A DNA stretch of 64,000 bases from Ferruginibacter sp. (GCA_031373525.1 JANMMS010000092.1:4542-68541); one strand, 5' to 3'. Shown: positions 16,424 to 50,167, numbered from the stretch's first letter. Notes: generated from the sequence alone by a model not told the origin. Program-made: numbers and translations.

Positions 16424-16476
16424 TCTGAATTAATTTTTTAATAATATCAATAGGTCAAATCATTTGACATGCAATT

Positions 16477-16506: not shown

Positions 16507-16542
16507 AATAAAGATATTTTCCAGTATCCAGCATCCTTCCTC

Positions 16543-16947
16543 TTACCCCTTCTTTCTTTTCTTCATATCCTCCATAAGTTCCTCTTTCGTCTGAAGTTTA
16601 CCATCTTCTTTTTTCTTAATATACATCACAAATTCCTTGAACAGTGCAGGGTTTTTTCTCAGGATAACTTTTATATTCACTTTTTCCTCTGTACATTCTT
16701 TATCGATCAACAAACTATTACCATAGAATTTTCCATAAGAACTACTGAATAGGATCTGTGTACTGTCAAGTGGAAGGAATTTACCATTTGATAATTTACC
16801 GTCAATATTGATATAATTATAAGTTCCTTTTTTTAAACTGTCCGTATAAAGATTTACATAGATGCTTTCGATTTTCTGTGCCCCGGCAGACGAAAAAACA
16901 AAAAGAAAAATGAATAGTAAATATTTTTTCAATAGGCTCATTCGCAA
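16543..16947 (-). CDS. Small secreted protein of unknown function
   Basis: 134 aa with a signal peptide (MRMSLLKKYLLFIFLFVFSSAGAQ) and a Lys/Glu-rich tail. No family recognised. Confidence 0.5.
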   Translation of the reverse strand: MRMSLLKKYLLFIFLFVFSSAGAQKIESIYVNLYTDSLKKGTYNYINIDGKLSNGKFLPLDSTQILFSSSYGKFYGNSLLIDKECTEEKVNIKVILRKNPALFKEFVMYIKKKEDGKLQTKEELMEDMKKRKKG

Positions 16948-17032
16948 ATATTCTTTTATTTGATGATATGCTTGGTTAAAACAATCTTAAATAGTAATAA
17001 TTATGTATACCAATACTGTAACTAATATGGAT

Positions 17033-27223: not shown

Positions 27224-27727
27224 ATGATAAAAAAGGACATTCAAAAAGAACAAACAACTACCATCCCGGTTTCATTGGATAAAAATGACCTGGCCATATT
27301 GAAACTTTTACAGGAAAATGCACGTATTACCGTAAAAGAAATATCTGCAAAGATCCACCTTAGTACCACACCGGTTCATGAACGTATTAAACGGCTGGAA
27401 CAAAATGGAGTGATCAAACAATATATTACCCTGGTAGATCAGCATAAGGTTAACCTGGGTTTGATGGTGATCTGTTATGTGTCCATAAAAGAACACAGCA
27501 AAACAGCAGGGGTTAAATTTATTAAGACGATCAATGAATTGCATGAAGTAAAGGAATGTTACAGCATTAGTGGTGAATTTGATTTTATGCTGAAAGTGAT
27601 TTGCCGTGATATGAATGCCTATTATGATTTTCATGTGAACAAACTCAGCCAGCAGGAAAATATGGGAAATGTGCAAAGTGTGTTTGTAATGGGGGTCATA
27701 AAGGAAACACAACAGCTGATATATTGA
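27224..27727 (+). CDS. Lrp/AsnC-family transcriptional regulator
   Basis: LDKNDLAILKLLQENARITVKEISAKIHLSTTPVHERIKRLEQNGVIKQY (HTH) plus a C-terminal RAM domain. Divergent from ahcY. Confidence 0.9.
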   Translation: MIKKDIQKEQTTTIPVSLDKNDLAILKLLQENARITVKEISAKIHLSTTPVHERIKRLEQNGVIKQYITLVDQHKVNLGLMVICYVSIKEHSKTAGVKFIKTINELHEVKECYSISGEFDFMLKVICRDMNAYYDFHVNKLSQQENMGNVQSVFVMGVIKETQQLIY

Positions 27728-34587: not shown

Positions 34588-34630
34588 GTGGGAGTTGACG
34601 GGGTCGAACCGCCGACCCTCTGCTTGTAAG
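34588..34630 (-). repeat. attL: 43-bp direct repeat equal to the 3' part of tRNA-Val (fragment only)
   Basis: gtgggagttgacggggtcgaaccgccgaccctctgcttgtaag is identical to 50092-50134. It lacks the tRNA 5' half. Confidence 0.9.
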
Positions 34631-34781
34631 TTAGAAAACAAATGATAACACATAATTTTTGATAATTGACCGTAATAGTAAGATTCAATGTAGTAAAGGG
34701 TTAATGATAAACAATGATAAACGATGATAGACAATAATATATATATTTGTGATGGAATGGTGACGGAATCATTATAACAGC

Positions 34782-36005
34782 ATGAATATAAATAAAGCCA
34801 AAGCAGCCATATACCTGGACAAAACACATCCTAAGCAAAATAAGGAGTGTGCAATCTATATTCGTGTCACATATAACCGGGTAAGAAAATATTACCCTAC
34901 TTCTAAAAGCCTTACTGAAATTGATTTTGAAAAGGCAGTTAGTGAAAAGCCTGGCAAAAGATTAGAAGATACTGCCCATGATATCCAACAAAAAAAAGTA
35001 GAAGCCCAATTAATCATTAATAACCTGCCTTACTTCACTTTTGAATTATTTGAAAAAAAGTTTATTAGTAATAGATCCATAAATGACACAATTGCAGATA
35101 TGTTTGATTTTGTAATTAAGAAATTAAAGGATAACGATCAAATTGGAACTGCAGTTTCTTATGGATGTGCGAAAAAAAGCATTGAAACTTTTCGGCCAGG
35201 ATTAAAATTTACTGATATCAATGTTTTTGTTCTCCAATCGTATGAGAAATGGATGCTGGGGGAAAAAAAGAGCACTACTACAATTAGCATTTATTTAAGA
35301 CACCTCCGGACGCTTTTTAATAATGCAATAGAAGACGGCTTTATTACAAAGGATATTTACCCATTTGGGAAAAGGAAATATGAAATACCGCAAAGTAATA
35401 ACGTTAAGAAGGCACTTACTTTAAAAGAAGTTGGTTTGATTTTTAATTATCGTTCTAAGCCTGGCACTACTACCGATAGGGCTAAAAACTATTGGCTTTT
35501 TATGTATTTATGCAATGGTATGAACATGAAGGATATGGCAATGCTGAAATATGAAAACATTAAAGGTAAATTCATTGAATTTCAGCGGGCCAAGACAGCC
35601 AGGACAAAGAGAAATGTTGTGCAGATTAGAGTTGTACTGACACCTGAAATTGAAGCTATAATAAAAAAATGGGGCAACCACAACAAACAACCAGGTAATT
35701 ATATTTTCCCCATACTCACCAAAGGTATTACAGCTGTCCGGGAAAGGCAATTGATTCAACAAATTATTTCTGTTGTAAATGATCACATGAAAATAATAGG
35801 AACTGATTTAAAAATAGAACAAGAGGTAACAACTTATACCTGTAGGCATTCATTTGCTACTATCCTTCAAAGAAGTGGTATTTCTACTGAGTTTATAAGC
35901 GAAGCTTTGGGGCATTCTAATTTAAGAACAACACAAAACTATCTTGCAGGTTTTGAAGATGAAAAGAAGAATGAAGTTGCAAAAATACTAACATCATTTA
36001 AATGA
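34782..36005 (+). CDS. Tyrosine recombinase / site-specific integrase (Bacteroidota type with N-terminal arm-binding domain)
   Basis: The C-terminal catalytic region TYTCRHSFATILQRSGISTEFISEALGHSNLRTTQNYL supplies the HxxR, H and Y residues. 407 aa. Confidence 0.9.
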   Translation: MNINKAKAAIYLDKTHPKQNKECAIYIRVTYNRVRKYYPTSKSLTEIDFEKAVSEKPGKRLEDTAHDIQQKKVEAQLIINNLPYFTFELFEKKFISNRSINDTIADMFDFVIKKLKDNDQIGTAVSYGCAKKSIETFRPGLKFTDINVFVLQSYEKWMLGEKKSTTTISIYLRHLRTLFNNAIEDGFITKDIYPFGKRKYEIPQSNNVKKALTLKEVGLIFNYRSKPGTTTDRAKNYWLFMYLCNGMNMKDMAMLKYENIKGKFIEFQRAKTARTKRNVVQIRVVLTPEIEAIIKKWGNHNKQPGNYIFPILTKGITAVRERQLIQQIISVVNDHMKIIGTDLKIEQEVTTYTCRHSFATILQRSGISTEFISEALGHSNLRTTQNYLAGFEDEKKNEVAKILTSFK

Positions 36006-36008
36006 TTT

Positions 36009-36167
36009 ATGGATAAGCAAAATAAAAATAAGCAGGAAAGCAAAGTAAAAAGATTACTTACACCTGCAGAAAAAGAATTGGTAAATCTTATATCAAAAAT
36101 TATCGTTGCAAATACAATAAGTAAGGCCAGTACAGAAATAAAGTTGAAATACAAAAATGACCAGTGA
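36009..36167 (+). CDS. Possible 52-aa ORF (MDKQNKNKQESKVKRLLTPAEKELVNLISKIIVANTISKASTEIKLKYKNDQ)
   Basis: Hand-translated; below the ORF-track cutoff. It starts 4 nt after the integrase stop and overlaps the next ORF by 11 nt. Confidence 0.25.
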   Translation: MDKQNKNKQESKVKRLLTPAEKELVNLISKIIVANTISKASTEIKLKYKNDQ

Positions 36168-37104
36168 ACAAATAAATATATTAATTAAACACGGTGATAT
36201 TTGCCCGGTATCGTCTTCCCATTCTGATATGAGTGAATGTACTTTCACTGATACAGATCAAAATATTGAATACTGTATAAGTATTAAAATGTATGAGATT
36301 TTTGAAAGATTATTCAGCGAATATTTAGAATTTGAAGTTGATTTTGATCATAAAGTATTTATAGATGCAATCAATAATAAATCTGAATTTATTTCCCCGT
36401 TAAAAGAGGATAGAATTACATTTTACAAAGATTATTTAAAGGAGCAAAATGATGAACTTACTTCTTTACTGGATGAAATTTATACTGTTAGTATAGACAC
36501 TATAGATTTAGCAAAATCCTTATGGCCAATATTTTTATTGAAAAACGGTATGTACCTAATAGAATGTTTAAAATTTACAGTTTTAAAAGGTAAAAAGTTA
36601 GAAGCGTTTTCATGGGGCTATTCAGGCACCCCACGATCAAAAAATCATACTTACATAAAAGAATTTTTTTATGCTAGCTCAATAAAAAATCTTTATACAA
36701 TTGTAACAATCGGCGAAAATATTAGATTTCTTAAAAGCTGCATTCTTGAAATAGACGAATCGAAAAATGAAACTACTAATAACCAAAAAAGTAAAAAAGT
36801 TACCCATAGGGATAATGCAATAGCCTATATTTTTAAACAAAATATGCCGAATAGTCACTTTGCCGTATTGACCCGGATAGATTCGAGAAATTTACTGAAC
36901 GAAGAAGGTAAGCCATTCGGTAAGAATTTTGAAATAGCTCTGGGCAATCTTACATACTTTGGAAAAAATAAAAAAACTAAATACAAGCCTTATAATTCAA
37001 AAGACTTACAACGAGTAATTGATTTAAAATTACTAGATAATTACCCAGAAGCTTTAAAGGCCCTTAAAGAAGAATTAATTAAACTAATTGCCAAAAGTAG
37101 CTAA
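36157..37104 (+). CDS. Hypothetical protein (element cargo between integrase and Xis-like gene)
   Basis: 315-aa intact ORF with no recognisable motifs. Confidence 0.5.
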   Translation: MTSEQINILIKHGDICPVSSSHSDMSECTFTDTDQNIEYCISIKMYEIFERLFSEYLEFEVDFDHKVFIDAINNKSEFISPLKEDRITFYKDYLKEQNDELTSLLDEIYTVSIDTIDLAKSLWPIFLLKNGMYLIECLKFTVLKGKKLEAFSWGYSGTPRSKNHTYIKEFFYASSIKNLYTIVTIGENIRFLKSCILEIDESKNETTNNQKSKKVTHRDNAIAYIFKQNMPNSHFAVLTRIDSRNLLNEEGKPFGKNFEIALGNLTYFGKNKKTKYKPYNSKDLQRVIDLKLLDNYPEALKALKEELIKLIAKSS

Positions 37105-37193
37105 TGATAGGAACTGTAGCGTATAACGTAGCCACTACAATGTAAATCCCTTCCACTTTTATTTAACATTTGCGCTTATATAAAACAGCACAA

Positions 37194-37544
37194 ATGGAAC
37201 AAATTACCCAGCCTTTATTTTTAACGACATTAACAGCACCTGAATTAAAAAGCTTATTCAGAAGTGAAATTGAAAATTATTTCAGTGAAAATAATAGTAT
37301 AAAATCACAGCAAAGTATTAATGAAGATGTTATTCTAAACATTCACCAGGCAGCAAAGTATATTAATCTTTCAATTCCTTCAATTTATCGTTTGCACGGC
37401 GCCAAAGCAATACCTGTATCTAAAAAGGGTAATAAGTTGAGATTTAGCAAACAAGCATTAACTAAATGGATGATGGGGGGCCGGGAAAAAACTCTAAAAA
37501 AAATTGAAAAGGATGCTGAAAATACGAACTCAATAAGTCAATAA
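37194..37544 (+). CDS. Excisionase / AlpA-like helix-turn-helix DNA-binding protein
   Basis: ILNIHQAAKYINLSIPSIYRLHGAKAIPVSKKGNKLRFSKQALTKWM matches the HTH_17/excisionase pattern. A hairpin (atgcaac...gttgcat) plus T-run follows. Confidence 0.7.
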   Translation: MEQITQPLFLTTLTAPELKSLFRSEIENYFSENNSIKSQQSINEDVILNIHQAAKYINLSIPSIYRLHGAKAIPVSKKGNKLRFSKQALTKWMMGGREKTLKKIEKDAENTNSISQ

Positions 37545-37715
37545 AAAAATGCAACCTTTTAGAGCTTAAAAAAAGTTGCATTTTTTATCAACAATAAAAA
37601 AACTGAACCCCGTAGAAAAACAAATATACTTCTTTTTTGCATTTTTCATATCACTTTACATAGAAGCTAGATTTTGTTATCCATTCGGGGTTTTAAAAAC
37701 CCAATCCTAAATAAA

Positions 37716-37946
37716 ATGAGTGGAAAACATTTACCCAAAGCAAAAGCCTCACCTAATTTCAAGCACCGCAAATTTATTATTAAGAATAATAAGAAAGAGC
37801 ATTTTAAACGGCATAGAGAAGCTGTAATTATTTTATCAGGCAATTCAGCATTTAAGTGCTATCAATACCGGTTTGGGTATTTTACATATAAAGGGAAAAG
37901 GCGAAGGTTTTCAATTCTATTACTTAACTCTAAAAAATTTAAGTAA
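37716..37946 (+). CDS. Possible small, very basic protein upstream of the primase-helicase
   Basis: 76 aa from the ATG, Lys/Arg-rich. Its stop is 1 nt before the primase ATG (taaaATG). It could equally be a non-coding leader. Confidence 0.2.
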   Translation: MSGKHLPKAKASPNFKHRKFIIKNNKKEHFKRHREAVIILSGNSAFKCYQYRFGYFTYKGKRRRFSILLLNSKKFK

Positions 37947-37947
37947 A

Positions 37948-40482
37948 ATGATTGAAACATTAAAAAACACTCGTAAGGGGAAATCTACTTCCAGGCAGGT
38001 ACAGAATGAAAATAATATTACTGCTAGCAATAAGTCCTACTTCCAGCAACGTATGGAGCTGCTGGGGATCACTGATGATATCAATAAGATTGCACTGCAT
38101 AAAACGGAGCTGCAGACTGGAAATGATATCATGGAAGATGTGCAGATCTTCCGGGAGGTTGACCAGGGAATTGAAATACTTGTATATACACTCGACCGGC
38201 TAACAATAAGAATTGAAAAGAGCGGGGGCAAACAGAAGAAAGATTTTTCAATGACCAGGTTAAAGGATCCTATCATTAAAGACAATGATATAATAAAATA
38301 TCTAATACCAAAAGGCGCTGGTACACATCCATTCTTTCCCCCCGGCGTGGTTGATAAATATGAGATGGGTGAGCAGATCCACACACTCTTCCTGGTAGAA
38401 GGATATTTTAAAGCTTTCAAAGCGGCCATGCATGGGGCCGATATCATCGGGCTGAGCAGCATTACCCACATGAAAGAAACCGGTAAGAATAACCTGCACA
38501 CGGAGATCCTTAAATTAATGACCACGTGCAACGTGCAGCGCATGGTTTGGCTTACCGATGGCGATGCCTTAGATATCAGCCAGAAGGAATTAACTGACGG
38601 CCTTGACCTTTACAAACGGCCTAATGGCTTTTTTCAATCGGTAAATACATTCAAAACATTATTATCTGACTATGATAATATTGAAAAATGGTTTTTCCAT
38701 ATTGATACAGACAGACTTTTTAACGACAATAATAAATTAGACCGGGCAAATCTTAAAGGTATTGATGATCTGCTGATCAGCTTCCAGGATAAAACTGCAG
38801 ATATCATCCAGGATCTGCAATCCGTAGGTAATAATAGTTACTATTTTCAAAAATTCAATGTAAGCTATGGCCTGGGTAAAGTTCATTCACATTTTCACCT
38901 GGCAGATGTAAAAGAATTTTATTTATACCATGTAGAGCGCCGTCCGGAACTGAAAAACAAAGAATTCATTTTTAATGGTACCAGGTATATATACAATGAA
39001 GAAACGGGCAATTGTGATATCAAAATGCCAAAAGATGCAGCTTCATATTTTAGAAGTGGAGATCTTTATTTTGAATTTATCCATAAACCAAATCAGCACC
39101 ACGAAATTGAAACTATCATTGAACAAAGGCAAAAATCCACCATTGTTGATGATCATGGAAAAACTTTCTTAAAATACATTAAAAAGTACAAAAGCTTTTG
39201 TAATGTACCGGATCATGTTTCTTATCAGCAGGTAATTAATAATTGTTTCAATCTCTATAGCCCCTTAGAAATTGGGCCACTTGATGAACCATGTGGCCCG
39301 GAGGATTGCCCTACAATCATTTCATTTCTTACCCATTTATTTGGAGAAAACAAAATAGGGTATGAAGACACGGAAACAAATCAAACGAAGGAGTATATCA
39401 CAATTGATTTAGCCCTAGATTATTTACAGCTGCTATATCAAAAACCTCAACAAAAACTACCTATACTTTGCCTGGTAAGTAAAGAAAATAATACGGGTAA
39501 AAGCACCTTCGCTGATTTTTTAAGAAACTTTTTAGGAGCAAATGTTGCCATTGTTGGAAACAGCGACTTGGCAGGTGATTTTAATGCTCACTGGGCCAGC
39601 AAAAATGTGGTGATATGTGATGAAACAAAAATAGATAAGCAGCATGTGGTAGAAAAGATAAAAAGCCTTAGCACTTCAAAAAAAATATTTATGAACGCTA
39701 AGGGCCGGGGCCAAGTAGAATTAGATTGCTTTATAAAGTTTGTACTCATAACAAATAATGAAGAAACTTTTATTTATGCAAGTGAAGAAGATATCAGGTA
39801 TTGGGTAATAAAAGTGCCTGTATTGAAAAAAGAAAACCCATTGATCATTGATCAACTAAAACAGGAAATCCCAATGTTTTTAAGTATGCTAAATAAAAGG
39901 AAGTTAGCTACAGAACATAAAAATCGGATGTGGTTTCATCCGCAATTATTGAAAACCGATGCCCTGGTAAAACTTGTAGAAAAAACAAAGCCTTCTGCAG
40001 AAAAACAGATCCGGCATTATATAAGGGAAATGTTTTTTAATACTGAGTATGATGAAATTTTAATGAGCACCACCGATATCATAAAAGAGGTTTTTAATGG
40101 CAGTTCAAAATATGATGCCGATTATATAAACGGCATTTTAAAATCAAACATGAAAATTGATAAATATCATGTTTGGAAAGTTGAGGGGTGCAAAGATAAT
40201 TATGATAAACAAAGCGAAGCTATTTTATATGCAGAATCAAAGGGTTTAAATGCTACCAGTGCAGTCGTTAAAAATTATATTTCTAAACGCTATACTTATC
40301 CAAAAAATGAAGAAGTTTTTGAAGAAAAAAAGGGAAAGGTTTTGAAAATAGTAAGTATTACTGTTGACAAGCCTGGGAGGCCATTTTTGTTTAAACAGAA
40401 TATGTTTTTAAGCCCGGAAGAAATTCAGGAAATTAAATCGACACTTAATGATTATGAGGATCCGGAATTACCGTTTCATTAA
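37948..40482 (+). CDS. Primase-helicase (Toprim-like N-terminal domain plus P4/D5-type SF3 helicase)
   Basis: Toprim-like LFLVEGYFKAF...WLTDGDALD. Walker A KENNTGKSTF, Walker B VVICDET, then FVLITNNEE. The start is taken at MIETLKNTRKG. Confidence 0.75.
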   Translation: MIETLKNTRKGKSTSRQVQNENNITASNKSYFQQRMELLGITDDINKIALHKTELQTGNDIMEDVQIFREVDQGIEILVYTLDRLTIRIEKSGGKQKKDFSMTRLKDPIIKDNDIIKYLIPKGAGTHPFFPPGVVDKYEMGEQIHTLFLVEGYFKAFKAAMHGADIIGLSSITHMKETGKNNLHTEILKLMTTCNVQRMVWLTDGDALDISQKELTDGLDLYKRPNGFFQSVNTFKTLLSDYDNIEKWFFHIDTDRLFNDNNKLDRANLKGIDDLLISFQDKTADIIQDLQSVGNNSYYFQKFNVSYGLGKVHSHFHLADVKEFYLYHVERRPELKNKEFIFNGTRYIYNEETGNCDIKMPKDAASYFRSGDLYFEFIHKPNQHHEIETIIEQRQKSTIVDDHGKTFLKYIKKYKSFCNVPDHVSYQQVINNCFNLYSPLEIGPLDEPCGPEDCPTIISFLTHLFGENKIGYEDTETNQTKEYITIDLALDYLQLLYQKPQQKLPILCLVSKENNTGKSTFADFLRNFLGANVAIVGNSDLAGDFNAHWASKNVVICDETKIDKQHVVEKIKSLSTSKKIFMNAKGRGQVELDCFIKFVLITNNEETFIYASEEDIRYWVIKVPVLKKENPLIIDQLKQEIPMFLSMLNKRKLATEHKNRMWFHPQLLKTDALVKLVEKTKPSAEKQIRHYIREMFFNTEYDEILMSTTDIIKEVFNGSSKYDADYINGILKSNMKIDKYHVWKVEGCKDNYDKQSEAILYAESKGLNATSAVVKNYISKRYTYPKNEEVFEEKKGKVLKIVSITVDKPGRPFLFKQNMFLSPEEIQEIKSTLNDYEDPELPFH

Positions 40483-40504
40483 AAATTTAATTGATCTATA
40501 AATG

Positions 40505-40690
40505 TTGTTACAATTGTTACAAAGCATTCAAAAAATGAGAAAAAGCAATATAGATAAAGGTTTTACGCTGTAACAGTATTTTTTATGGCTGTTACATTCT
40601 GTTACATTCTGTTACATTTATCTGTTACATATTTTACTATGTTAAAGTAAAGAATATCAAATAGTTAGTAAAATGTAACAATTGTAACAA
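40505..40690. repeat. Iteron block (putative replication origin)
   Basis: ttgttacaattgttaca (40505-40521) is the exact reverse complement of tgtaacaattgtaacaa (40674-40690). Between them lie ctgtaacag (40568) and four direct ctgttacat copies at 40589, 40599, 40609 and 40622. Confidence 0.7.
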
Positions 40691-40741
40691 AAAAATAGAG
40701 GGTTTGGGAGATACCTTTTTTTAAAAAGTAAAAGCAAAAAA

Positions 40742-41140
40742 ATGAATAAAAAGAAAATAGAAACATTACTCCCTTTTACAATTATTCAGGGCTTGGAATA
40801 TGAGGGCACTGTAAGCAATGCAATTCATATTACCAGGATGTACCCACATCAGACTTCATTTGTAAGCATGTATGAGCCAGGTATGTTAGAGGCTAGAATT
40901 CCAAACATTCATTTATCTAAGGAATTGAAAGCTTTAGTAATTAGGAACTGCTATTTTCCTAAGCATACAGAAGCTATTAAAAAATTAATTGCCCAGGATG
41001 AAATTTCATTTTTAGAACCGGGCAATAAAGAGAAACAAAAAATTAAACGGCCAGCAATAGTTATCTGTACTTCTACTGACCTGGAAGAAATACCGATGGA
41101 TATTTTTCCAGACAAAGTGGGTTTATTAAAATGCGGTTGA
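40742..41140 (+). CDS. Hypothetical protein
   Basis: 132-aa ORF, first gene after the iteron block. No motif recognised. Confidence 0.45.
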   Translation: MNKKKIETLLPFTIIQGLEYEGTVSNAIHITRMYPHQTSFVSMYEPGMLEARIPNIHLSKELKALVIRNCYFPKHTEAIKKLIAQDEISFLEPGNKEKQKIKRPAIVICTSTDLEEIPMDIFPDKVGLLKCG

Positions 41141-41592
41141 TTGAAAGTAAAAATTTAAAATATTATTTTATGGATAGCAAGTGGTTAAAATCAATTATTG
41201 TGCAGAATCAATTGTCAAAAAGAGATTCATGTAAAATATTAAATATGACAGAAGAAGAATTTAATGCAATCGATTTATTGGATGAATTGCCGGAAAAAAT
41301 ATCTCTCCAAATTTTTGAAACCCTTGATTTACATTATATAGTTCCTTCTGGTTTAAGTATTGAATATTATAATTATTTAAAGTTTTTAAATAAAAAAACT
41401 ATTGAAAATGAAAGGCTTCTTGAGCAAATAAAAAATTTAATTAAGGTGCTGGAAGTTGATAAAAACAGGCTAAAAGAACAAATTGAAAAGAAAGATCAAA
41501 TAATAAAAAAACTAGAAGAAAAAATTGAGTTTGATCAGGCCGAAAACATTGAACTGGAAAATTTAGTGAAAAAACTAAGGCGCTTAAAATGA
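41131..41592 (+). CDS. Hypothetical protein with a C-terminal coiled coil
   Basis: 153-aa ORF overlapping the previous ORF by 10 nt, with heptad-like LLEQIKNLIKVLEVDKNRLKEQIEKKDQIIKKLEEKIE. The start could be the Met at 41170. Confidence 0.45.
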   Translation: MRLIESKNLKYYFMDSKWLKSIIVQNQLSKRDSCKILNMTEEEFNAIDLLDELPEKISLQIFETLDLHYIVPSGLSIEYYNYLKFLNKKTIENERLLEQIKNLIKVLEVDKNRLKEQIEKKDQIIKKLEEKIEFDQAENIELENLVKKLRRLK

Positions 41593-41620
41593 GTATTAAA
41601 TTATAAAAAAAATCCTTTTT

Positions 41621-41869
41621 ATGAAACCGGAAACAGCTATTAAAAATGATATTCCTATAGTGATTAGCACTAAAGCTTTGGCGCAAAGAAAAGAATTTGA
41701 AAAAATTATAGATCAATTAAAGAAACAAAATGATACTATTTCAAAAATGAATAAAAAAAACATCTTGTTAATTTCTCAGCAAAATGAGCGAATTGCCTTT
41801 ATTAATAAAAAAATTGAGATGTTTAGAAAAAGCTTAATAATTGCTTGGGGTAAATCACTAAAAGTTTAA
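41621..41869 (+). CDS. Hypothetical small protein
   Basis: 82-aa ORF, same strand and tightly packed. Confidence 0.4.
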   Translation: MKPETAIKNDIPIVISTKALAQRKEFEKIIDQLKKQNDTISKMNKKNILLISQQNERIAFINKKIEMFRKSLIIAWGKSLKV

Positions 41870-42015
41870 AATTAAAAAAAGTGGTAAAAACTAATTGTAA
41901 TAACCGGCATGAAGTGGATACATACATTCATTTTCCAGCAAACAGAGTGTCCTTTTCAATCGTATTTTATGAATTTAATTTTGAAAGGATTAAGATATAA
42001 AACTTAAGTAAAGTT

Positions 42016-45000
42016 ATGAGCGTACGTACAGATGTTATAAACCTCAATGTTAATGTAAATGGCAATAAGGCCCAGAATGACCTAAATAACTTGCGTAAAC
42101 GAGCTGCAGATGTGAAATTTGAAATGGAAGGTCTTAAAAAGGGTACAGCTGAATACATTGCCAAAAGCAAAGAACTGGCCCAGGTAAATACACAAATGGT
42201 TGCATTAAAAAAAGAGATTGGCCTTGCTTCCCTTACTCAAAAAGAACTTACTGCAGAACTTAATAAATTAAAGGCACTACGTGGCTCAGTGATCCCGTTT
42301 TCAAATGAATACAAAGAATTAAGCAAATCTATTGACCAGGTGGGGAAAAGGCTTAATGACGTTAAAAATGGCGTACAAGGTTTTTCTTCTTTCTTCTCAA
42401 AAATAAAAGATGAAGTAAAACAATTTGGAGTAGTGGCCGCCGGATACCTGGGCTTCCAGTTTCTCACATCCCAGTTTCAAAATATTATCCGTGGTGCAGG
42501 CAAAATGAGCGATCAGCTTGCAGATCTTCGCCGGGTGGCCGGATTAACTGGTGATGAAGCTGTAAATCTCAACAACCGGTTTAAAGAACTGAATACACGT
42601 ACAAGTACCGAAGGCCTCCGGGAGATTGCCATCATTGCCGGTAAGCTTGGCGTGGCAAAGGATGACATCTTTGATTTTACTGCAGCAGTAGATAAGCTCG
42701 TTGTTTCCTTGGGCGATGAATTAGGTAATGCAGAGCAGATCACCAGCCAGCTGGGAAAAATATTGAATGTTTTCAATGGAGAAATATCTGCCGATGGAAT
42801 TACAAAACTCGGTAATGCATTTGTAGAATTAGCCAATACAGGAAGCGCTACCGGTGGTTTTATTGCCGACTTTGATCAGCGCCTCAGTGGTATTGCAAAA
42901 AGTGCCGGTATTAGCCTGGGCGCATTAAGTGGGCTCGGTGCCGGGCTGGAAGAAATGGGTGGCAGGGTAGAAAGCAGCGCCACATCTATACAAAAATTAG
43001 TAGTCAACATTGCTTCTGATATTCCTGCAGCTGCAAAAATTGCCGGCCAGTCAACACAGGAATTTGATAAACTTTTCAAACTGGATCCCACCGAAGCCAT
43101 TTTAAAATATAGCGAAGGGCTTGTAAAAAACAAGCAATCATTTTCAGAGGTTACAGCTTCTTTAAAAGATGCCGGCGAAGAAGGTGCCCGTTACATTGAA
43201 ACCATTTCAAAACTTGGTACCGGTGCCGATCAGCTTCGTAAACGTATTGACCTGGGAAAACAATCCATACAGGAAAGTTCTGCTATTACAGAAGCATTTA
43301 CCTTAAAAAATGAAACCTTTGGAGCTTCCCTTGATAAGTTGGGAAAAGAATTTAATAAACTTACTACTTCGCCCGGTGTAACTGGATTTTTAAAAGTTGC
43401 GGTAGAAGGTGCACTTGCATTTATAAGAGCAATTAAAGCAATACCATTTCCAATTACAATAGGAGCTTTTACAACATTGACAGGAATAATTTTATTATAT
43501 GCAGCTGCGAAAGTAAAAGCATTCGTAGCTACAGCAAGGCACACAGCAGCAGAATTAATTAGCAGTGCTGTACTTAAAGCAAAAGCGATTGCGACTGAAA
43601 TTGCTACAAGGGCTCAATTAGCTGCAATTATTGCAACAGATCTTTTTACTGGAAAAATAAAATTGGCTGCAGCTGCACAACAATTTTATTCCTATGTCCT
43701 CGCTGGTAGTTTAGGCCCTATTGGAATTTTAATAAGTCTTGTAGGAGGATTAGCAGCAGGATATCTTTTGATGTCTAATAGCCAAAGAAAACTTACTTCT
43801 GAACAACGTGCAGCGAATGATCTCTCTAAAGAAGCTGCTTCTATTTACTCAGACCAGGTTAATACAGTTGAGCGACTTAAAAAAATTCTGGAAGATGAAA
43901 ATGCAAGCCTTAATTTAAAAAAAGAAGCATATAAACAACTCATAGCTATTCATCCTGAATTTGCAAAAACACTCAGCTTGGATGAAACCGGGCACTTAAA
44001 AGGAGCAGAAGCTATTAACGTTTATATAAAATCTCTAAAAGATAAAGCTGAAGTACAAGCTGCAGAAACACTATCTAATAAAGCATACCAGGAGATTCTT
44101 GAAAAACAGCAGGAATTAACTGAAGTAAATAATAAGTTTTTCATCCAGGGCAGAAAGCATGAGCGCCTGAATTTGTTGGAAGAAATTGCCGACCTGCAGA
44201 AAAAGAAAGATTATTACGATAACATCATTGCTCAAAAAATATCTGCTAATTCAAGTACTGCAATTGGTACAAATACTGGCAGCAATAGTGGAAATGCTGC
44301 AGCCATTGCAGTAAAAACTATTGCTGTTATAAAAGCTAGGTTGAAAGAACTCGATGATGCCTATGAGAACATTGATATCAGCAATAAAAAAGCCCTGGCA
44401 TCAAACCGGGCAGCTCGAAAATCCCTCCAGGATGAACTGGATGCATTGGAAGGTAAAAAATCACCCGGACAAAAATCGGATGACAGTGAATACAAACGCC
44501 TGAAAGCCGAAGCTGAAAAATTTTATAAGGACATAAAGGCTTTGAAAAATCGGGTTGATGCAGGTGATAACCCAGAAGAGCAGGAAATACAAAGAGCCAC
44601 TGCCAAATATGAAGAGTTGCTGCTGAAGGCGAAGAATTATTTTATTAAATCGGCCAGCAGTAAAAAGACTTTCAATGAGGAAGAAAAAATAATTGAAGAA
44701 GCACAGCAGAAAGAACTGAATGCCATATTTCAAAAATATTTTAAAAAGCGTTTTGAAGAAAGCAGTGCAAAAGAATATGAGGACAGCCTTACTGCCAGGC
44801 ATGAATTTTCTGATCAGTTAAAAGTTGCTGCAGCTAAAGATTATGCCGATGGTAAAATCTCTAAAATACAGTATGCTGCAGAAATTAAGCAGATAGATAA
44901 AAATGAAACAGCCGATCGTATCATTATTGCCGAAGACTATAGCGGCACCGTAAAAAAAGCTGCCAGCGATGTAAGGCAATTCCGTAAAAAAGAAGAAGAG

Positions 45001-46209
45001 CAAACCACCGCAGATCTCATAACAGAATCAGAAGCCAGGGTACAGGTAGCTGCTGATGAAGAAGCTGCAAAACTCCGCCGGGCGGTACTAACAACCAAGC
45101 CGGGATCTACAGCAAATTTAAATGCCCGAAAAGCTGAATTAAAATATGAAGAGGAACTGGAAGTGCAGGCTGCCAAAGATAAGTATGCAGCACTTGGGAC
45201 GGTTATTGGCGAAGAAAGTGAAATCATTATGGAGATCCGGGCTGATTTTGCTCAAAGGCAAGAAGAGGCTGAAGGTAATCATTGGCAAAATTTGATAGAT
45301 AAGATAATGCAATATGTGGCGTATTTCCAACGTGCAATTAATAGCCTTAACCAATATATAACTAATCGTGAAACTGCCCAGTTTGCAAAAGAAAAAAAAC
45401 TGAATGATTTAAAAAGAAAAGAATTAAAAAAGCAATTTGATAATAAACTACTCAGTCAGGCTCAGTATGATAAAAAACTGAATGAACTGAATGAAGAGCA
45501 GGATAAAAGAGAACGTGAATTTGCAAGAAAAAGAGCAAAGCGAGAAAAGGCAATTGCTCTTTTTGGGGCCATTGTGAATACCGCTGCAGCTGTAGCAAAA
45601 GCATTAGCGGGAAATTTCCCTGTGCCTGTAAATATAGCTTTTGCTGCTCTGGCCGCTGTTTTAGGTGCATTGGAAATAGCAGCCATTGCCAGCCAACCCT
45701 TGCCCGAAGCAGGCCGTGGTAAATGGTTTACTGAAGGAGATAAGCATAGCGATGCTTCAGGGGGTATTCCTATAAAAATTGAAAGAGATGAAGCAGTAGT
45801 TACGGCTGCTGCTATGACAGATAATAAAGAATACATGGTACGGGGTACACCTGCCCAGATTACCAGCGCCCTTAACAGCCAGGCAGGTGGGGTAAACTGG
45901 GCAGGTGGCGCCATCATTAAAAAGATGAGCCATATAACAGATCGGCCAGCAATTATTAACCCTGGGCTTCCCGTACAGCTTAAACAATTTGGGTATGGTA
46001 ATAGTGAAAATGGTAATCAAAATCAAAATATCGAAGGTGAATTAAATTCAATGCGCTCTGATTTTGTAAACGAAATAAAAGGCTTACGAGCAGATATGAA
46101 CACCTGGCAAATAAATCTTAAAGCACACGTTGTTTTACGAGATCTTAAAGACAAAGAAAAACTTTATGAGTCTTCTAAAAATTTAAGTGGTTTATCGAAA
46201 GCTAGTTAA
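42016..46209 (+). CDS. Phage tail tape-measure-like protein
   Basis: 1397 aa. The core GKMSDQLADLRRVAGLTGDEAVNLNNRFKELNTRTSTEGLREIAIIAGKLGVAKDDIFDFTAAVDKLVVSLGDELGNAEQITSQLGKILNVF resembles the TP901-type TMP core region. It also has hydrophobic Ala/Gly-rich helices and a very long Lys/Glu coiled coil. Confidence 0.65.
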   Translation: MSVRTDVINLNVNVNGNKAQNDLNNLRKRAADVKFEMEGLKKGTAEYIAKSKELAQVNTQMVALKKEIGLASLTQKELTAELNKLKALRGSVIPFSNEYKELSKSIDQVGKRLNDVKNGVQGFSSFFSKIKDEVKQFGVVAAGYLGFQFLTSQFQNIIRGAGKMSDQLADLRRVAGLTGDEAVNLNNRFKELNTRTSTEGLREIAIIAGKLGVAKDDIFDFTAAVDKLVVSLGDELGNAEQITSQLGKILNVFNGEISADGITKLGNAFVELANTGSATGGFIADFDQRLSGIAKSAGISLGALSGLGAGLEEMGGRVESSATSIQKLVVNIASDIPAAAKIAGQSTQEFDKLFKLDPTEAILKYSEGLVKNKQSFSEVTASLKDAGEEGARYIETISKLGTGADQLRKRIDLGKQSIQESSAITEAFTLKNETFGASLDKLGKEFNKLTTSPGVTGFLKVAVEGALAFIRAIKAIPFPITIGAFTTLTGIILLYAAAKVKAFVATARHTAAELISSAVLKAKAIATEIATRAQLAAIIATDLFTGKIKLAAAAQQFYSYVLAGSLGPIGILISLVGGLAAGYLLMSNSQRKLTSEQRAANDLSKEAASIYSDQVNTVERLKKILEDENASLNLKKEAYKQLIAIHPEFAKTLSLDETGHLKGAEAINVYIKSLKDKAEVQAAETLSNKAYQEILEKQQELTEVNNKFFIQGRKHERLNLLEEIADLQKKKDYYDNIIAQKISANSSTAIGTNTGSNSGNAAAIAVKTIAVIKARLKELDDAYENIDISNKKALASNRAARKSLQDELDALEGKKSPGQKSDDSEYKRLKAEAEKFYKDIKALKNRVDAGDNPEEQEIQRATAKYEELLLKAKNYFIKSASSKKTFNEEEKIIEEAQQKELNAIFQKYFKKRFEESSAKEYEDSLTARHEFSDQLKVAAAKDYADGKISKIQYAAEIKQIDKNETADRIIIAEDYSGTVKKAASDVRQFRKKEEEQTTADLITESEARVQVAADEEAAKLRRAVLTTKPGSTANLNARKAELKYEEELEVQAAKDKYAALGTVIGEESEIIMEIRADFAQRQEEAEGNHWQNLIDKIMQYVAYFQRAINSLNQYITNRETAQFAKEKKLNDLKRKELKKQFDNKLLSQAQYDKKLNELNEEQDKREREFARKRAKREKAIALFGAIVNTAAAVAKALAGNFPVPVNIAFAALAAVLGALEIAAIASQPLPEAGRGKWFTEGDKHSDASGGIPIKIERDEAVVTAAAMTDNKEYMVRGTPAQITSALNSQAGGVNWAGGAIIKKMSHITDRPAIINPGLPVQLKQFGYGNSENGNQNQNIEGELNSMRSDFVNEIKGLRADMNTWQINLKAHVVLRDLKDKEKLYESSKNLSGLSKAS

Positions 46210-46222
46210 TAAAGGCTGAAAT

Positions 46223-46480
46223 ATGAATTCAAAAACAGAAAATAGCAATGAAAGGATTGAATTTCTAGAAAAATACTTTCTTGAAAATTTTATTCCTGTA
46301 GAAGCAAGTGAAAAGGATATCATTTTCATGTCAACGAATGAAATTTATAATTCGTTTTATTCTTTATTTCCTTCTGATGAATTAAATAAAGAGATGCTTT
46401 TCTCCTGGTTAATGAAAGGTGGGTTTAAATTTATTGACATGGGTAAAATGCAGTTTGAGTGGATGCTACATACTAAGTAA
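46223..46480 (+). CDS. Hypothetical small protein
   Basis: 85-aa ORF, 14 nt after the TMP-like stop. Confidence 0.4.
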   Translation: MNSKTENSNERIEFLEKYFLENFIPVEASEKDIIFMSTNEIYNSFYSLFPSDELNKEMLFSWLMKGGFKFIDMGKMQFEWMLHTK

Positions 46481-46522
46481 ACAATTTTTATAACATAATA
46501 ATTAACAAAATAAAAAAACAAC

Positions 46523-47182
46523 ATGGAAAATCTATTAATTGATTTCAATAAATCTGGTTATGAATCAGAAATATTATCATTGGAAACTTTGAAAATTTGC
46601 TTTGAAAAGGTAATTGAACATTACAATTTACTTGGACTTGGACACTTTGAAACAAAGGATTTCCATAATTTATTATTAAATACAGAAAAATTCTTGTTTG
46701 ATAATTTAATGAAAGACAAACAGGATAATATTTCAGGTTTGCCAGTTTCAAAAGAAAAAATGTTTGAAATAATGGAAAAACCTACGGGTTATTATTCTTT
46801 AATATCCGAAATTAAAGATATTAACGAAAAAATTTCATCAAAAATAAAATCTCAATACCTGAAATTATATACAGGTTGTTCACAAAAAAAGGTTATAGAT
46901 TTTTTTGATTTCGATGCTAAAGGGGCAATTATCATAAAACAGAAAAAGATTGACCAGGCTAAAAAGCTTTATGAATTGTATGCAACAACAGAGCAATCAA
47001 AAACAGCCTTTTTGCTTGCTACAAAAGTTTGTGAACTTTTAAATAAAAGTGGGTTATTTCAAAGCCATAATGATTATTATACAAATAACAGACAGGTTGA
47101 AAAAATAATGGAATGCATTAAAATTGAAGGCAAATGTGAAAATGCCGCAAAAATTAATATTAATAAAATAAAGTATTTTTAA
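46523..47182 (+). CDS. Hypothetical protein
   Basis: 219-aa ORF with no motif recognised. Confidence 0.45.
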   Translation: MENLLIDFNKSGYESEILSLETLKICFEKVIEHYNLLGLGHFETKDFHNLLLNTEKFLFDNLMKDKQDNISGLPVSKEKMFEIMEKPTGYYSLISEIKDINEKISSKIKSQYLKLYTGCSQKKVIDFFDFDAKGAIIIKQKKIDQAKKLYELYATTEQSKTAFLLATKVCELLNKSGLFQSHNDYYTNNRQVEKIMECIKIEGKCENAAKININKIKYF

Positions 47183-47258
47183 TTAATAAATTCAAAAGCA
47201 AATCCTGATATTACTAATCAACTATCGTCTGAACAGACGATAGTTATAAAAATTTTAT

Positions 47259-47474
47259 ATGAATCCTAATACAGCTATTAAAAATGAAAATTCTAAAAAG
47301 ACACCTACAGATACAATTGAGTTTGAAGGAAAAGAATATAAGTGGCAACGTGGAAGTTTCCAGCTGCCCGGTGATACCACAGTTTACATTTCCAAAGATG
47401 TTTGTAATGATTTTACTATTATTAAGCGCCTTATAGACATTGATGGACAATCTATTTTAAGAGAATTATATTAA
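47259..47474 (+). CDS. Hypothetical small protein
   Basis: 71-aa ORF. Confidence 0.35.
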   Translation: MNPNTAIKNENSKKTPTDTIEFEGKEYKWQRGSFQLPGDTTVYISKDVCNDFTIIKRLIDIDGQSILRELY

Positions 47475-47533
47475 AAGTTTGTAAAATCAAATATTATTTA
47501 TAATCAGGTGACTGGTATCCTGCAGGTGCCTGA

Positions 47534-48031
47534 TTATAAATAAGTAAATGTTTTCTTAAAATACTTTGTGTACAATAAACTTTTTCCTGTAGCAATACGA
47601 TACCGGTAATAACATTTCCTCATACTGTCATCACTCCAGGCTTCTTTATCAATGCCTATTCTCTTTCTTACTTCAGGTAAATTACTTTGAAAGTTTGGAA
47701 GTGTCGAAATCATATCATCCATTAAAGTATGAAAGCGGCCTTTTATTATAGTTTCTATAAAAATGTTGAAGTTTTTTATATTGCTCTCATTCAGGTTTGC
47801 ACCAAATCGGCGAAATTCTTTCACAGGAATGTATATACGTAACATTTCAGTGTAGTACTTGCATCTAAAAGATGTTCTACGTTGGTTAGTTGAATGTTGT
47901 AACAAATCATGCATCTTTTGCCCGATTTCCATACCACGAGTTTTCATAATAGGCTTTGATCCAAATTTTGTAAATATATAAGCTCTTATATATTTCTTTG
48001 TGGGAATATCGACTGGAACAAATCCTTTCAT
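47534..48031 (-). CDS. Hypothetical protein
   Basis: 165-aa ORF downstream of, and co-oriented with, the S49 peptidase gene. Confidence 0.45.
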   Translation of the reverse strand: MKGFVPVDIPTKKYIRAYIFTKFGSKPIMKTRGMEIGQKMHDLLQHSTNQRRTSFRCKYYTEMLRIYIPVKEFRRFGANLNESNIKNFNIFIETIIKGRFHTLMDDMISTLPNFQSNLPEVRKRIGIDKEAWSDDSMRKCYYRYRIATGKSLLYTKYFKKTFTYL

Positions 48032-48085
48032 TGCAGTTTAATAGTTTTCTGTAAAATAAAGAATTATATAAAAGAATCAATTATT

Positions 48086-48997
48086 TTAAGTTCTTAATTT
48101 AATTAAGTTTTCCATCCTTTTTATTACTTCGCTAATTGGTTTTATTCCATCAATCAAACCAATTTTTAATGCATCTTTTGCATAGTACATTTTTCCGGTG
48201 AATGGTTCATTACCATTTACTTTAAGACGCTGACCACGAAAGAAAGACACCTGATCAATAAAATCTTTTACTAAAAATTTGAGGTCAGCTTGCATCAAAG
48301 TATAATTTCCTTTCACGGCCTCTTTATAATCTTTGTTCTTATCAATACTTTGTGGAGCATAGATATTATGGACCTTAATTCCATTTTGTTCAAAGAAACC
48401 GGCAAAGTCATAAATAGTACAGTATGCTCCTATACTTCCCACCTGATCAGTTACCCGAGTACAATATATTTCCTGGGCAGCACAACCGATCCACATCGCT
48501 CCACTTGCTGCAATTCCATCCTGTATTACTGTAATTACAGGTTTGATTTTACTCACCTGGCGAATTGTTTCAGCGAGCATACCAGTACCATCAGACTGGC
48601 TGCCCGGAGAATCAATATTTAATAAAATACCTTTTACCTGGTCACTGTTTGAAAGTCGAATGATTAAATCATTAAATTCAACACTACCGTAGCTGCAGAA
48701 ATCACCATATTTTAAAATTGGGCCCAGAAGATCAATCACTGCAATACTGTTATTTGGAACCCTTTCTATAGCAGTAGTTGGATTTACACTGTAGATATTA
48801 TTTTTCGATCCATTAATGTATTTTTTGGAAGGTGATAGAATTTGATCTGTTCGTAATTCCTTTTCTTTAATGGATGTTTGATCCGCTGTTGATGTTCCTT
48901 TGATCATTCCTTTCAAAAGAGGTAATAAATTCCGGGCATAACTAGGCTCTATTAACCAATCCCCTCTAAGTATTGCAGATGCAGTTTTAAAGCTCAT
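48086..48997 (-). CDS. S49-family serine peptidase (SppA / phage prohead-protease-like, ClpP fold)
   Basis: GILLNIDSPGSQSDGTGMLAETIRQVSKIKPVITVIQDGIAASGAMWIGCAAQEIY...VGSIGAY is the typical S49 core. Confidence 0.75.
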   Translation of the reverse strand: MSFKTASAILRGDWLIEPSYARNLLPLLKGMIKGTSTADQTSIKEKELRTDQILSPSKKYINGSKNNIYSVNPTTAIERVPNNSIAVIDLLGPILKYGDFCSYGSVEFNDLIIRLSNSDQVKGILLNIDSPGSQSDGTGMLAETIRQVSKIKPVITVIQDGIAASGAMWIGCAAQEIYCTRVTDQVGSIGAYCTIYDFAGFFEQNGIKVHNIYAPQSIDKNKDYKEAVKGNYTLMQADLKFLVKDFIDQVSFFRGQRLKVNGNEPFTGKMYYAKDALKIGLIDGIKPISEVIKRMENLIKLRT

Positions 48998-49623
48998 AAT
49001 TTTTTTTTTAGTTATGCGAAGTTTAAAGCTTTTAATCAGTAAGAAAAGGACAGCATATCTGTAATTCTATTATTCAGAGCTGCAGTGTTGCCCTGATCAC
49101 CGGCTATTGCCCTGATCAGTGTGATATCTGCATCAGTTGTGTAGGCAGATCCATCCATGCCAGGCACGGGAGCAATGGGGTATGTGGTAGGCTACCGGCA
49201 TAGAGGCGCTCAGCTGCCATAGTGAGCTATGCCTAGCAAACCCTTACTAGTAGTGAAGTGTATCGAATGTGTGATTACATATACCCCCAAAAAACACCTT
49301 TGGCGTGCGCTCTCAGCCGATAGTGTGGGCGGCAGTTTTTGTGTGTATTTTTACGATTTTTAAAAAATTGAAAAAATAAAGTGTTGATTATCAAAGGAAA
49401 TTCACAAAACAGGTTTAAAACGCCAAATTATAGCCAGTTCTGTATTAAACTTTAATTGAAATTAGTAGTACCTTGCCAGTGCGACACACAAATAAAGTTT
49501 CTTATTAATTCATTATTTATCATATCATTCCCGGCGAAAGATTGAAAGTATCTTCCTTCATTTGCTTTATAGCGGTGTGTGTCGCAGCGACCGGGGATTT
49601 ATTTAATTAATAAAAAAACAAAC

Positions 49624-49977
49624 ATGCGACACACACACAAACCAATTCTAAGCAGTGTAATTAATTCAAAAAACATACAACCACCTGCAATTCTATTTCC
49701 TGAAAATGATGAAAAAAAAGAGGCTTTATTATGGAAAATTATTCATGATAAAGATGAAGAAATAAAAGCCTGGATAGAGTTAGTGAATTATCATAAATAC
49801 AGAATTAAAAATTGTTTATTAAAACAATCAAAAGAAGAAAAGAAAAAGGAATGCGATCTTTTAAGAAGCATTATGGATATCAATCTACAAATAAGCAAGT
49901 CTAATGAAGATCTTATTGACTATCTCCAATCAAAAGTTAGATTTCGGGAAGGTAAATTTTTAACAGTCGTTAAATAA
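49624..49977 (+). CDS. Hypothetical protein (last gene before attR)
   Basis: ORF from the ATG at 49624 (the track GTG is at 49579). The start codon is embedded in a TGCGACACACA repeat. Lys/Glu-rich. Confidence 0.4.
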   Translation: MRHTHKPILSSVINSKNIQPPAILFPENDEKKEALLWKIIHDKDEEIKAWIELVNYHKYRIKNCLLKQSKEEKKKECDLLRSIMDINLQISKSNEDLIDYLQSKVRFREGKFLTVVK

Positions 49978-50053
49978 ATAGTATTCTAAAAAGCTTTTCC
50001 GGATTACCCAAATTATTTTGTGTTGAAATTGTGACGGAATTGATAAAAATAAA

Positions 50054-50082
50054 TAAGGGCTTCATTTAATGAAACCCTTATT
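50054..50082 (-). terminator. Element-borne hairpin next to the reconstituted tRNA-Val 3' end
   Basis: ataagggcttcat-tta-atgaaacccttat: a 13-position stem with one mismatch. A T-rich run follows on the minus strand. Confidence 0.5.
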
Positions 50083-50091
50083 ATCATTGAG

Positions 50092-50134
50092 TGGGAGTTG
50101 ACGGGGTCGAACCGCCGACCCTCTGCTTGTAAGG
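50092..50134 (-). repeat. attR: 43-bp direct repeat inside the intact tRNA-Val
   Basis: Identical to 34588-34630. Confidence 0.9.
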
Positions 50135-50167
50135 CAGATGCTCTAAACCAACTGAGCTAAACTCCCT
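50093..50167 (-). tRNA. tRNA-Val (anticodon TAC)
   Basis: The reverse complement GGGAGTTTAGCTCAGTTGGTTTAGAGCATCTGCCTTACAAGCAGAGGGTCGGCGGTTCGACCCCGTCAACTCCCA folds as a cloverleaf. Acceptor stem GGGAGTT/AACTCCC, anticodon loop CTTACAA, T-loop TTCGACC. Confidence 0.9.

Follow-up and report, generated by a model that had tools for sequence, protein, structure and literature searches.

A lone tape measure gene in a 15.5-kb integrative element of Ferruginibacter sp. and the case for a candidate phage satellite family

We analyzed a 64,000-nucleotide stretch of DNA from Ferruginibacter sp. (GCA_031373525.1 JANMMS010000092.1:4542-68541; "the window" below means this whole stretch), in which a 15.5-kb element occupies positions 34588-50136, between 46-nt direct repeats (34588-34633 and 50091-50136) that copy the 3' part of the tRNA-Val(tac) at 50091-50166. 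With this repeat and an intact tyrosine integrase, it is a discrete integrative element, and 27% of it (4194 nt of ~15.5 kb) is taken up by a single gene, an uninterrupted open reading frame (ORF) of 1397 amino acids at 42016-46209 (+), which encodes a tape measure protein (TMP), while most other virion genes are absent. The reading that we favor, and hold on sequence grounds to be probable, is that the element is a phage satellite and not a prophage, and that it would place its own TMP in the tails of a helper phage, giving chimeric tails like those of the Vibrio PLE satellites.

The assignment of the ORF to the TMPs is supported by three profile collections. PF10145 (PhageMin_Tail, Pfam) scores 48.3 bits against a cut-off of 33.2 over residues 189-370, TIGR01760 (tape_meas_TP901, NCBIfam) scores 56.6 bits against a cut-off of 28.8 over residues 151-466, and phrog_25337 ("tail length tape measure protein", PHROGs) matches across residues 8-962 with E = 5e-82. 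A hydropathy scan places hydrophobic Ala/Gly-rich clusters at residues 455-506, 557-589, and 1179-1229, residues 600-1180 are strongly charged (27-45% K/R/E/D), a composition that fits a long coiled coil, and the C-terminal region 1230-1397 bears motifs conserved across the family. An earlier note on this DNA had described the ORF as filling more than a quarter of the element and as having a TP901-type core and two hydrophobic clusters; the ORF is present as described, both core models score above their curated cut-offs, and the number of clusters agrees with our scan if 455-506 and 557-589 are counted as one double cluster. The nearest cultured relatives are the TMPs of Flavobacterium siphophages (2A, laban6-1, FPSV-D15, and others), at 27-29% identity by tblastn, and no relative in the PDB was found by sequence using a profile built from 30 TMPs. 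A protein search (5.8 billion proteins) returned 218 matches at E ≤ 0.001; among the 120 of these that were listed, many are full-length, with 1339-1467 amino acids. We consider it nearly certain that the ORF encodes a genuine and intact phage tail TMP.

The genomic contexts of these relatives were sorted into two classes, with most loci (designated by L numbers below) belonging to phages and a minority to small elements. In the phage contexts, the TMP gene is flanked by the conserved genes ph126, ph730 (with Big_9/Cadherin domains), and ph605, and nearby lie u85-like genes (the u85 homologue being ~2.5 kb downstream of the TMP), genes for a holin, an M15 endolysin, and a serine recombinase, operons with the head-protease and capsid genes, and in some loci a DUF5906 replicase gene. 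The cultured siphophage laban6-1 (Duneviridae) has the same block, in which a TMP of 1418 amino acids is followed by proteins of 134, 731, and 630 amino acids, and thus these phage loci represent real siphophage tail modules. A prophage of the same kind, L057, is present in the cultured Ferruginibacter yonginensis (GCA_042651465.1, JBHSCZ010000001.1, 761430-785635), with genes for a holin, an M15 endolysin, a 753-aa Big_9 protein, a 1401-aa TMP, and a 601-aa protein, and we presume from its gene content that it exemplifies the helper type. We note that several TMP homologues are on contigs of ~16.3 kb, which were considered as circular mini-phages; the two examined (L003 and L005) turned out to be fragments of ordinary (pro)phages with ph730 and ph605. 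Two further observations concern phage locus L009, where the stretch ahead of the TMP start (around 9880-10000) is masked as N, and where an RVT_1 reverse transcriptase near the end of the locus (16046-17012) may be part of a retron, a diversity-generating retroelement, or a group II intron.

Scans of the element's ORFs against Pfam, PHROGs, NCBIfam, and PADLOC found no tube, sheath, distal-tail, chaperone, capsid, portal, or terminase gene, which bears out the earlier observation that tail tube, sheath, baseplate, and TMP chaperone genes are missing beside the TMP; an S49 prohead protease is the sole head or tail exception, and this protease and the TMP are the only virion-related genes recognized in the element. 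When the ORFs of at least 60 codons from ~28 phage loci were compared with the element by tblastn, matches were confined to the integrase (weak), an ORF at 36009-36167, the replicase, the TMP, u85, u165, and the S49 protease, and no decayed fragments of other phage genes were found in the element, including any frameshifted or decayed tail genes around the TMP of the kind that a degraded prophage would leave. The suggestion in the earlier note that the small neighboring ORFs might adopt tail assembly chaperone or distal-tail folds was not borne out by the two proteins that we modeled with AlphaFold2 (AF2). The u85 model (pLDDT 89) gave only weak winged-helix matches (E > 0.5), and the mostly helical u219 model (pLDDT 79) gave no structural match in the PDB or BFVD. 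A G/GT-type frameshift was also considered at u132/u153, where the two ORFs overlap with no slippery heptamer, as in ordinary translational coupling.

These comparisons bear on the possibility that the element is a defective prophage remnant, that is, a Duneviridae-like prophage that was deleted for its head and tail genes and in which the TMP was left by chance. Related phages do carry counterparts of the TMP, u85, u165, the S49 protease, and the primase, and deleting ph605 and a ~170-aa gene between the phage TMP and u85 would yield the arrangement seen in the window. However, pseudogene fragments of phage genes are absent and all ORFs are intact, including the one of 4.2 kb; furthermore, the same reduced set recurs at 27-65% protein identity in elements with other integrases and insertion sites, u219, u315, and u71 are specific to the small elements and are not found in the phage loci, and non-coding blocks are conserved among the siblings, as described below. 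Weighing these points, we regard a remnant as quite improbable.

The siblings in question comprise three complete elements (L008, L016, and L019) and two partial ones (L051 and L052). Their common reduced gene set consists of an integrase (tyrosine or serine), a u315-like gene, an HTH_17 gene (found in 4 of 4 complete small elements, including that of the window), a replicase, a TMP, and a u219-family gene. L008 carries, after host genes, an ApeA/HEPN gene, a 1406-aa TMP, and ORFs of 95, 232, and 66 amino acids, with a 322-aa ORF, two HTH_17 genes, a DUF5906 replicase, and a serine recombinase farther on. It has eight genes in common with the window element (27-67% identity), and on a circular map the gene order of the two is equal, whereas the recombinase and the att point differ, such that the maps are permuted. 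L016 occupies ~18 kb between host mnmE and terC, and includes a tyrosine integrase, an HTH_17 gene, a 1453-aa TMP, and a u219 homologue. L019 is inserted at the same tRNA-Val(tac) as the window element, downstream of host-like genes, and has an integrase that is 49% identical to that of the window, as well as u315, HTH_17, a primase, an S49 protease, and a 1394-aa TMP. In the partial element L051, the TMP is followed by a 67-aa ORF, a ClpP-type protease, and a u219 homologue. As a side observation, the gene directly upstream of the TMP in L008 (8569-9870, -) encodes a 433-aa ApeA_NTD1/HEPN_Apea protein, and is probably anti-phage defense cargo.

Of the genes shared by the small elements, u219 can serve as a marker. 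A search with the single sequence returned only a match to itself, and it was a profile search that revealed the family, which comprises 334 clusters at 50% identity among 1.84 billion proteins, all of ~200-230 amino acids, with no Pfam, PHROGs, or NCBIfam family among its matches. The hidden Markov model of this family matches 6 of 6 small elements and 0 of ~28 phage loci, of each of which at most 24 kb was captured. Conservation extends to non-coding DNA, in that the block at 49320-49394 matches L008 8172-8246 (79%) and L016 17171-17252 (73%), and the block at 49480-49637, which contains repeated TGCGACACACA words, matches L008 16672-16829 (79%). Both blocks are more conserved than much of the coding DNA, and are likely regulatory or cis-acting sites of the family. 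Taken together, the absence of decay, the u219 marker, the constraint on the TMP (discussed below), and the conserved non-coding DNA indicate that the reduced gene set has been maintained through long divergence and across integration modules, and we have high confidence that this family of small elements is real.

The constraint on the TMP was gauged from the 75 columns at which 16 phage-context TMPs show no variation. Of these, 73 are retained in the window TMP, compared to 75 in L008, 72 in L019, 62 in L016, and 52 in the shortened L051, while leave-one-out values for the phage TMPs themselves are 0.63-1.0. By this measure, the constraint on the TMP is not relaxed. We had also considered a satellite-specific C-terminus of the TMP, but the C-terminal motif is common to the phage and small-element TMPs, which rules this out. 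In a maximum likelihood tree of 32 TMPs, each small-element TMP is placed beside phage TMPs: those of the window and L008 group with L003, L007, and L009 (SH-aLRT 100), L016 pairs with L029, L019 with L015, and L051 with L012, L013, and L020, such that well-supported branches force at least four context changes. The window TMP is 63-69% identical to those of L003, L007, and L009, all three of which have ph126, ph730, and ph605 beside the TMP gene, and is collinear with them across ~1390 amino acids; it is closer to that of phage L003 (69%, full-length) than to that of its sibling L008 (64%). This pattern fits a history in which the small-element TMPs were repeatedly reacquired from, or exchanged with, helper lineages.

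The length of the protein is conserved as well, at 1397 amino acids in the window compared to 1375-1390 in the nearest phage TMPs and 1375-1406 in the window clade; among the small-element TMPs, only that of L051 is markedly shorter (1145 amino acids). Thus, tail length would not be altered by the element, and the idea of the earlier note that the element re-measures a helper tail is not supported. A further possibility raised there is that the TMP fold has been co-opted for a role outside the virion, such as membrane insertion or service as a DNA conduit, by which the element would move particle-free. The three hydrophobic clusters of the TMP and the absence of other tail genes would suit such a role. 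In contrast, its 63-69% identity and collinearity with TMPs of complete tail modules, at equal length and with conserved N- and C-termini, the promoter motif that it shares with the structural operons of phages (see below), and the prohead protease that accompanies it all speak against such a role, and scans of the element against Pfam and NCBIfam found no conjugation or secretion genes. We therefore consider co-option to be highly improbable.

Alignment of the DNA upstream of the TMP start codons revealed a promoter-like motif, in which TGTCCTTTT is followed after 19-21 nt by a TAnnTTTG-like sequence. The latter matches the -7 promoter element of the Bacteroidota, and many copies of the first element end in a -33-like TTTG. 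In 22 of 23 non-redundant loci, both phages and small elements, the motif is found ahead of the TMP gene, regardless of which gene is upstream, and in phages it also precedes other structural units, for example, ph1370 in L007, ph730 and ph605 in L017, and the head protease in L020. L001, L022, and L038 hold 4-5 copies each, with positions in L001 at 2461, 2567, 5981, and 9944, and in L017 at 7194, 9931, and 14431. The window element holds exactly two copies, which are found ahead of the TMP and S49 genes only, and no one-mismatch variant in the element is placed upstream of a gene. Elsewhere in the window there are four exact copies, of which three fall inside genes and the fourth lies at 27232-27239 (-). 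In L019, the motif likewise precedes the TMP and S49 genes, and in L016, L051, and L052 a further copy is located at the stop codon of the TMP gene, before a small ORF and the u219 gene. This placement indicates that the two virion genes of the element are wired like phage structural genes, in contrast to those for its integration and replication. We propose the motif as a candidate late promoter or activator site of uncultured Bacteroidota siphophages, the firing of which would depend on a late factor encoded by the helper.

The same promoter arrangement could also serve anti-phage interference, in which the element, as a satellite or as a defense island, would make a near-native TMP from a phage late promoter that poisons or competes with the tail assembly of an infecting or induced phage and protects the host population, and the TMP would not be for the element's own transfer. 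Blocking tail assembly is a recognized defense strategy that can ride on satellites (PMC11364771), as exemplified by the 80-aa protein Rta of PLE11, which blocks the TMP of the helper (PMC12987554); furthermore, the element's TMP does stand behind a phage-type structural promoter motif, and the TMP of L008 has the ApeA/HEPN defense-like gene beside it. However, a dominant-negative decoy is expected to diverge at functional positions, whereas the window TMP keeps nearly all of the invariant columns and both termini, and a 4.2-kb gene is a costly decoy in a 15-kb element. In addition, PADLOC gave only two marginal matches among the element's ORFs (u82 and u132b), neither at a meaningful score. 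We note that interference is compatible with the satellite reading, since PLE11 does both; as an explanation in its own right, we judge it to be unlikely.

The features of the element are collected in Table 1. The replicase is 65-67% identical to that of L008 and 48-52% identical to those of phage loci L007 and L041, and together with the adjacent iterons it would, by homology, form the element's own replication module. One additional 10-nt unit, CTGTTACATT, is present after 40588 in contigs of metagenome runs X1 and X4, which indicates that the iteron copy number is polymorphic in the population. The u165 homologues of L012 (9351-9860), L013, and L020 are each the first gene of an operon that diverges from the TMP and continues into the head genes, and sit upstream of the late-type promoter motif, a position that would suit a late-gene regulator. 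Homologues of the S49 protease are found in sibling L019 (46% identity) and in phage head operons. Neither u315 (Pfam, PHROGs, NCBIfam, and PADLOC) nor u165 (Pfam, PHROGs, and NCBIfam) has a family match, and an Rfam scan of the element for structured RNA gave only the tRNA. Separately, the starts of u82, which directly precedes the TMP (41616-41657; MKPETAIKND...), and u71, which ends the TMP operon (47254-47295; MNPNTAIKNE...), are 81% identical in DNA over the first ~12 codons, and thus the ORFs on either side of the TMP block have paralogous starts.

Table 1. Positions (counted from the first nucleotide of the window) and characteristics of the features of the element.
Feature	Position	Strand	Characteristics
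att repeat, element end	34588..34633	-	displaced copy of the 3' 46 nt of tRNA-Val; matches 50091-50138, 96% over 48 nt
Tyrosine integrase	34782..36005	+	Arm-DNA-bind_5, SAM_5, and catalytic domains (Pfam); 49% identical to L019 integrase
u315, 315 aa, core gene of the small-element family	36157..37104	+	homologues in L008 (27%) and L019 (28%); L016 weaker, through L019
HTH_17 (AlpA/Xis-like) DNA-binding protein	37170..37544	+	PF12728
DUF5906 primase-helicase (replicase), 869 aa	37873..40482	+	PF19263
Iteron block, candidate origin, directly 3' of replicase	40505..40690
Three small ORFs (132, 153, and 82 aa) 5' of TMP	40742..41869	+	no family matches; u153 homologue in L008
Promoter-like motif TGTCCTTTT-N19-TAATTTTG	41948..41983	+	TGTCCTTT core ends 60 nt upstream of TMP start codon
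TMP gene	42016..46209	+	1397 aa; PF10145, TIGR01760, phrog_25337
u85, small winged-helix-like protein	46223..46480	+	homologues 3' of phage tail block; adjoins TMP in L008
u219, small-element marker gene	46523..47182	+	in the loci compared, always co-occurs with TMP in the same element
u71, small ORF	47259..47474	+	48% identical to 66-aa ORF of L008
u165	47534..48031	-	48% identical to ORFs in L012, L013, and L020
S49 head-maturation (prohead) protease	48086..48997	-	PF01343; phrog_53 at 3e-47
Second TGTCCTTTT copy	49044..49052	-	47 nt upstream of S49 start
Two non-coding blocks	49320..49637	+	conserved among sibling small elements
Last element ORF, 132 aa	49579..49977	+	no significant family match
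tRNA-Val(tac)	50091..50166	-	ARAGORN, Rfam; 3' 46 nt form the other att repeat

Returning to the satellite reading, the motif shared with phage structural operons and the recurrence of the TMP in siblings with different integrases make helper-tail hijacking the best supported of the options that the earlier note had offered for a lone TMP. Re-measuring, which was part of the same option, is not supported in view of the conserved length, and the co-option and relic readings are both disfavored. The presumed helpers would be temperate Duneviridae-like siphophages of Chitinophagaceae-type Bacteroidota. Once such a helper enters its late phase, the satellite TMP would be expressed alongside the helper's late genes and built into tails whose remaining parts (tube, the ph126/ph730/ph605 distal-tail proteins, and fibers) come from the helper, and these chimeric tails would deliver the satellite genome. 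The gain would then lie in a satellite-specific ruler and DNA-entry protein, and not in a different tail length, and one possible use would be independence from, or resistance to, factors that act on the helper TMP, such as an interference factor of the satellite's own or superinfection exclusion by a helper prophage. That the element depends on a helper, that its TMP enters helper tails, and why this would be selected are all inferred from the comparisons given above.

Several points weigh against this interpretation and should be taken into account. Contigs from the four freshwater-sediment metagenomes in which the element is present (runs X1-X4) gave a single joint (34620 to 50090), with sides of at most 30 nt and lying within tRNA sequence that is shared with other organisms, and this does not constitute evidence of excision. 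The element has no recognized gene for a small terminase, for capsid-size redirection, or for a tail assembly chaperone, whereas PLEs pair their TMP with a chaperone and a baseplate hub. In addition, the 63-69% identity of the TMP is to metagenomic phages and not to a demonstrated helper, and the helper proposed for the host in the window is a presumed phage type only. A recently decayed prophage would likewise keep the promoter motif. Finally, family searches gave no function for u219, u85, u165, or u315, nor did structure searches for u219 and u85.

A more elaborate synthesis of these observations can be offered tentatively, and we consider it possible but doubtful. Here, the elements would be the first recognizable satellite family of the Bacteroidota, with a helper-length TMP and a prohead protease, both on the helper late promoter, as their sole structural contributions. 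The TMP would have been swapped repeatedly with helper lineages, giving satellite-specific tails that escape factors acting on the helper TMP, such as superinfection exclusion by helper lysogens or the satellite's own anti-helper factor, and the widespread fold-orphan u219 would be a partner that enforces use of the satellite TMP.

TMP-bearing satellites have been proven experimentally only in 2025-2026, and for Vibrio PLEs alone. If our interpretation is correct, an independent family in a distant phylum would mean that TMP substitution is a general satellite strategy and not a Vibrio curiosity. The analysis also yields a candidate late-promoter motif for the little-studied phages of the Bacteroidota, and the u219 family as a marker for finding such elements, while the cultured Ferruginibacter yonginensis with its helper-type prophage L057 is a possible test system.

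The P4-like satellites, which exploit helper P2, resemble the window element in integrating at tRNA-type sites by means of a tyrosine integrase, in encoding a large primase-helicase, and in having very few virion genes. Their late promoters answer to the helper's late activator, and are analogous to the promoter-like motif shared by the window element and the phages. P4 differs in having no TMP and in acting on the capsid, through Sid and Psu; none of the element's ORFs matches Sid, Psu, or Delta in PHROGs or Pfam, and TIGR01613, which models the C-terminus of P4-family primases, gives 25.5 bits on the window, well short of its cut-off of 108.7. The cultured phages laban6-1, 2A, and FPSV-D15 have TMPs of the same family (27-29% identity, phrog_25337) and of similar length, but in these phages the TMP is found inside a complete tail module, the neighboring genes of which are absent from the window.

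The statement in the earlier note that no satellites with their own TMP are known was outdated by about a year, since TMPs have been reported in PLEs (PMC12987554) and EPIPs (PMC12822802), and putative tmp genes in PLE-like elements and some cf-PICIs (Extended Data Fig. 10, PMC12987554). For the EPIPs, which are satellites of Mycolicibacterium aichiense, TMP-mediated tail hijacking has been proposed by their authors (bioRxiv, December 2025, PMC12822802). Like the window element, they carry a TMP and lack tail proteins; however, they also have a small terminase, a head-tail adaptor and stopper, a scaffold, and a major capsid protein, none of which is found in the window element, and their tails are longer, whereas the length of the window TMP is unchanged. 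The cf-PICIs resemble the window element in that putative tmp genes occur in satellites, but they encode full capsid and packaging modules, whereas the window element has only the prohead protease besides its TMP.

The closest comparison is with the PLE satellites of Vibrio cholerae. Alongside a TMP, these have genes for a tail assembly chaperone and a baseplate hub (BhuB), and western blot and mass spectrometry data demonstrate that the PLE TMP takes the place of that of helper ICP1 in chimeric tails (Mathur, Boyd et al., Nature 2026, PMC12987554). The likeness is that of a small integrative element that has its own TMP and no tube, sheath, or fiber genes, and we propose the same logic for the element of the window. 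The differences are several: the chaperone and baseplate hub of the PLEs have no counterpart among the Pfam, PHROGs, and NCBIfam matches of the window element, and a homologue of Rta was not identified there. The PLE TMP is ~20% identical to that of its helper and 95 amino acids shorter, whereas the window TMP is 63-69% identical to those of related phages and of the same length. The PLEs exploit a lytic myovirus, whereas the helper of the window element is presumably a temperate siphovirus, and the hosts are Vibrio in the one case and a member of the Bacteroidota in the other. A literature text search found no described Bacteroidota satellite family with a TMP. Thus, the window family is set apart from these known systems by its phylum, its presumed siphovirus helper, its lone TMP, the helper-like identity and length of this TMP, the pairing of the TMP with an S49 protease, and the late-type promoter that it shares with phages.

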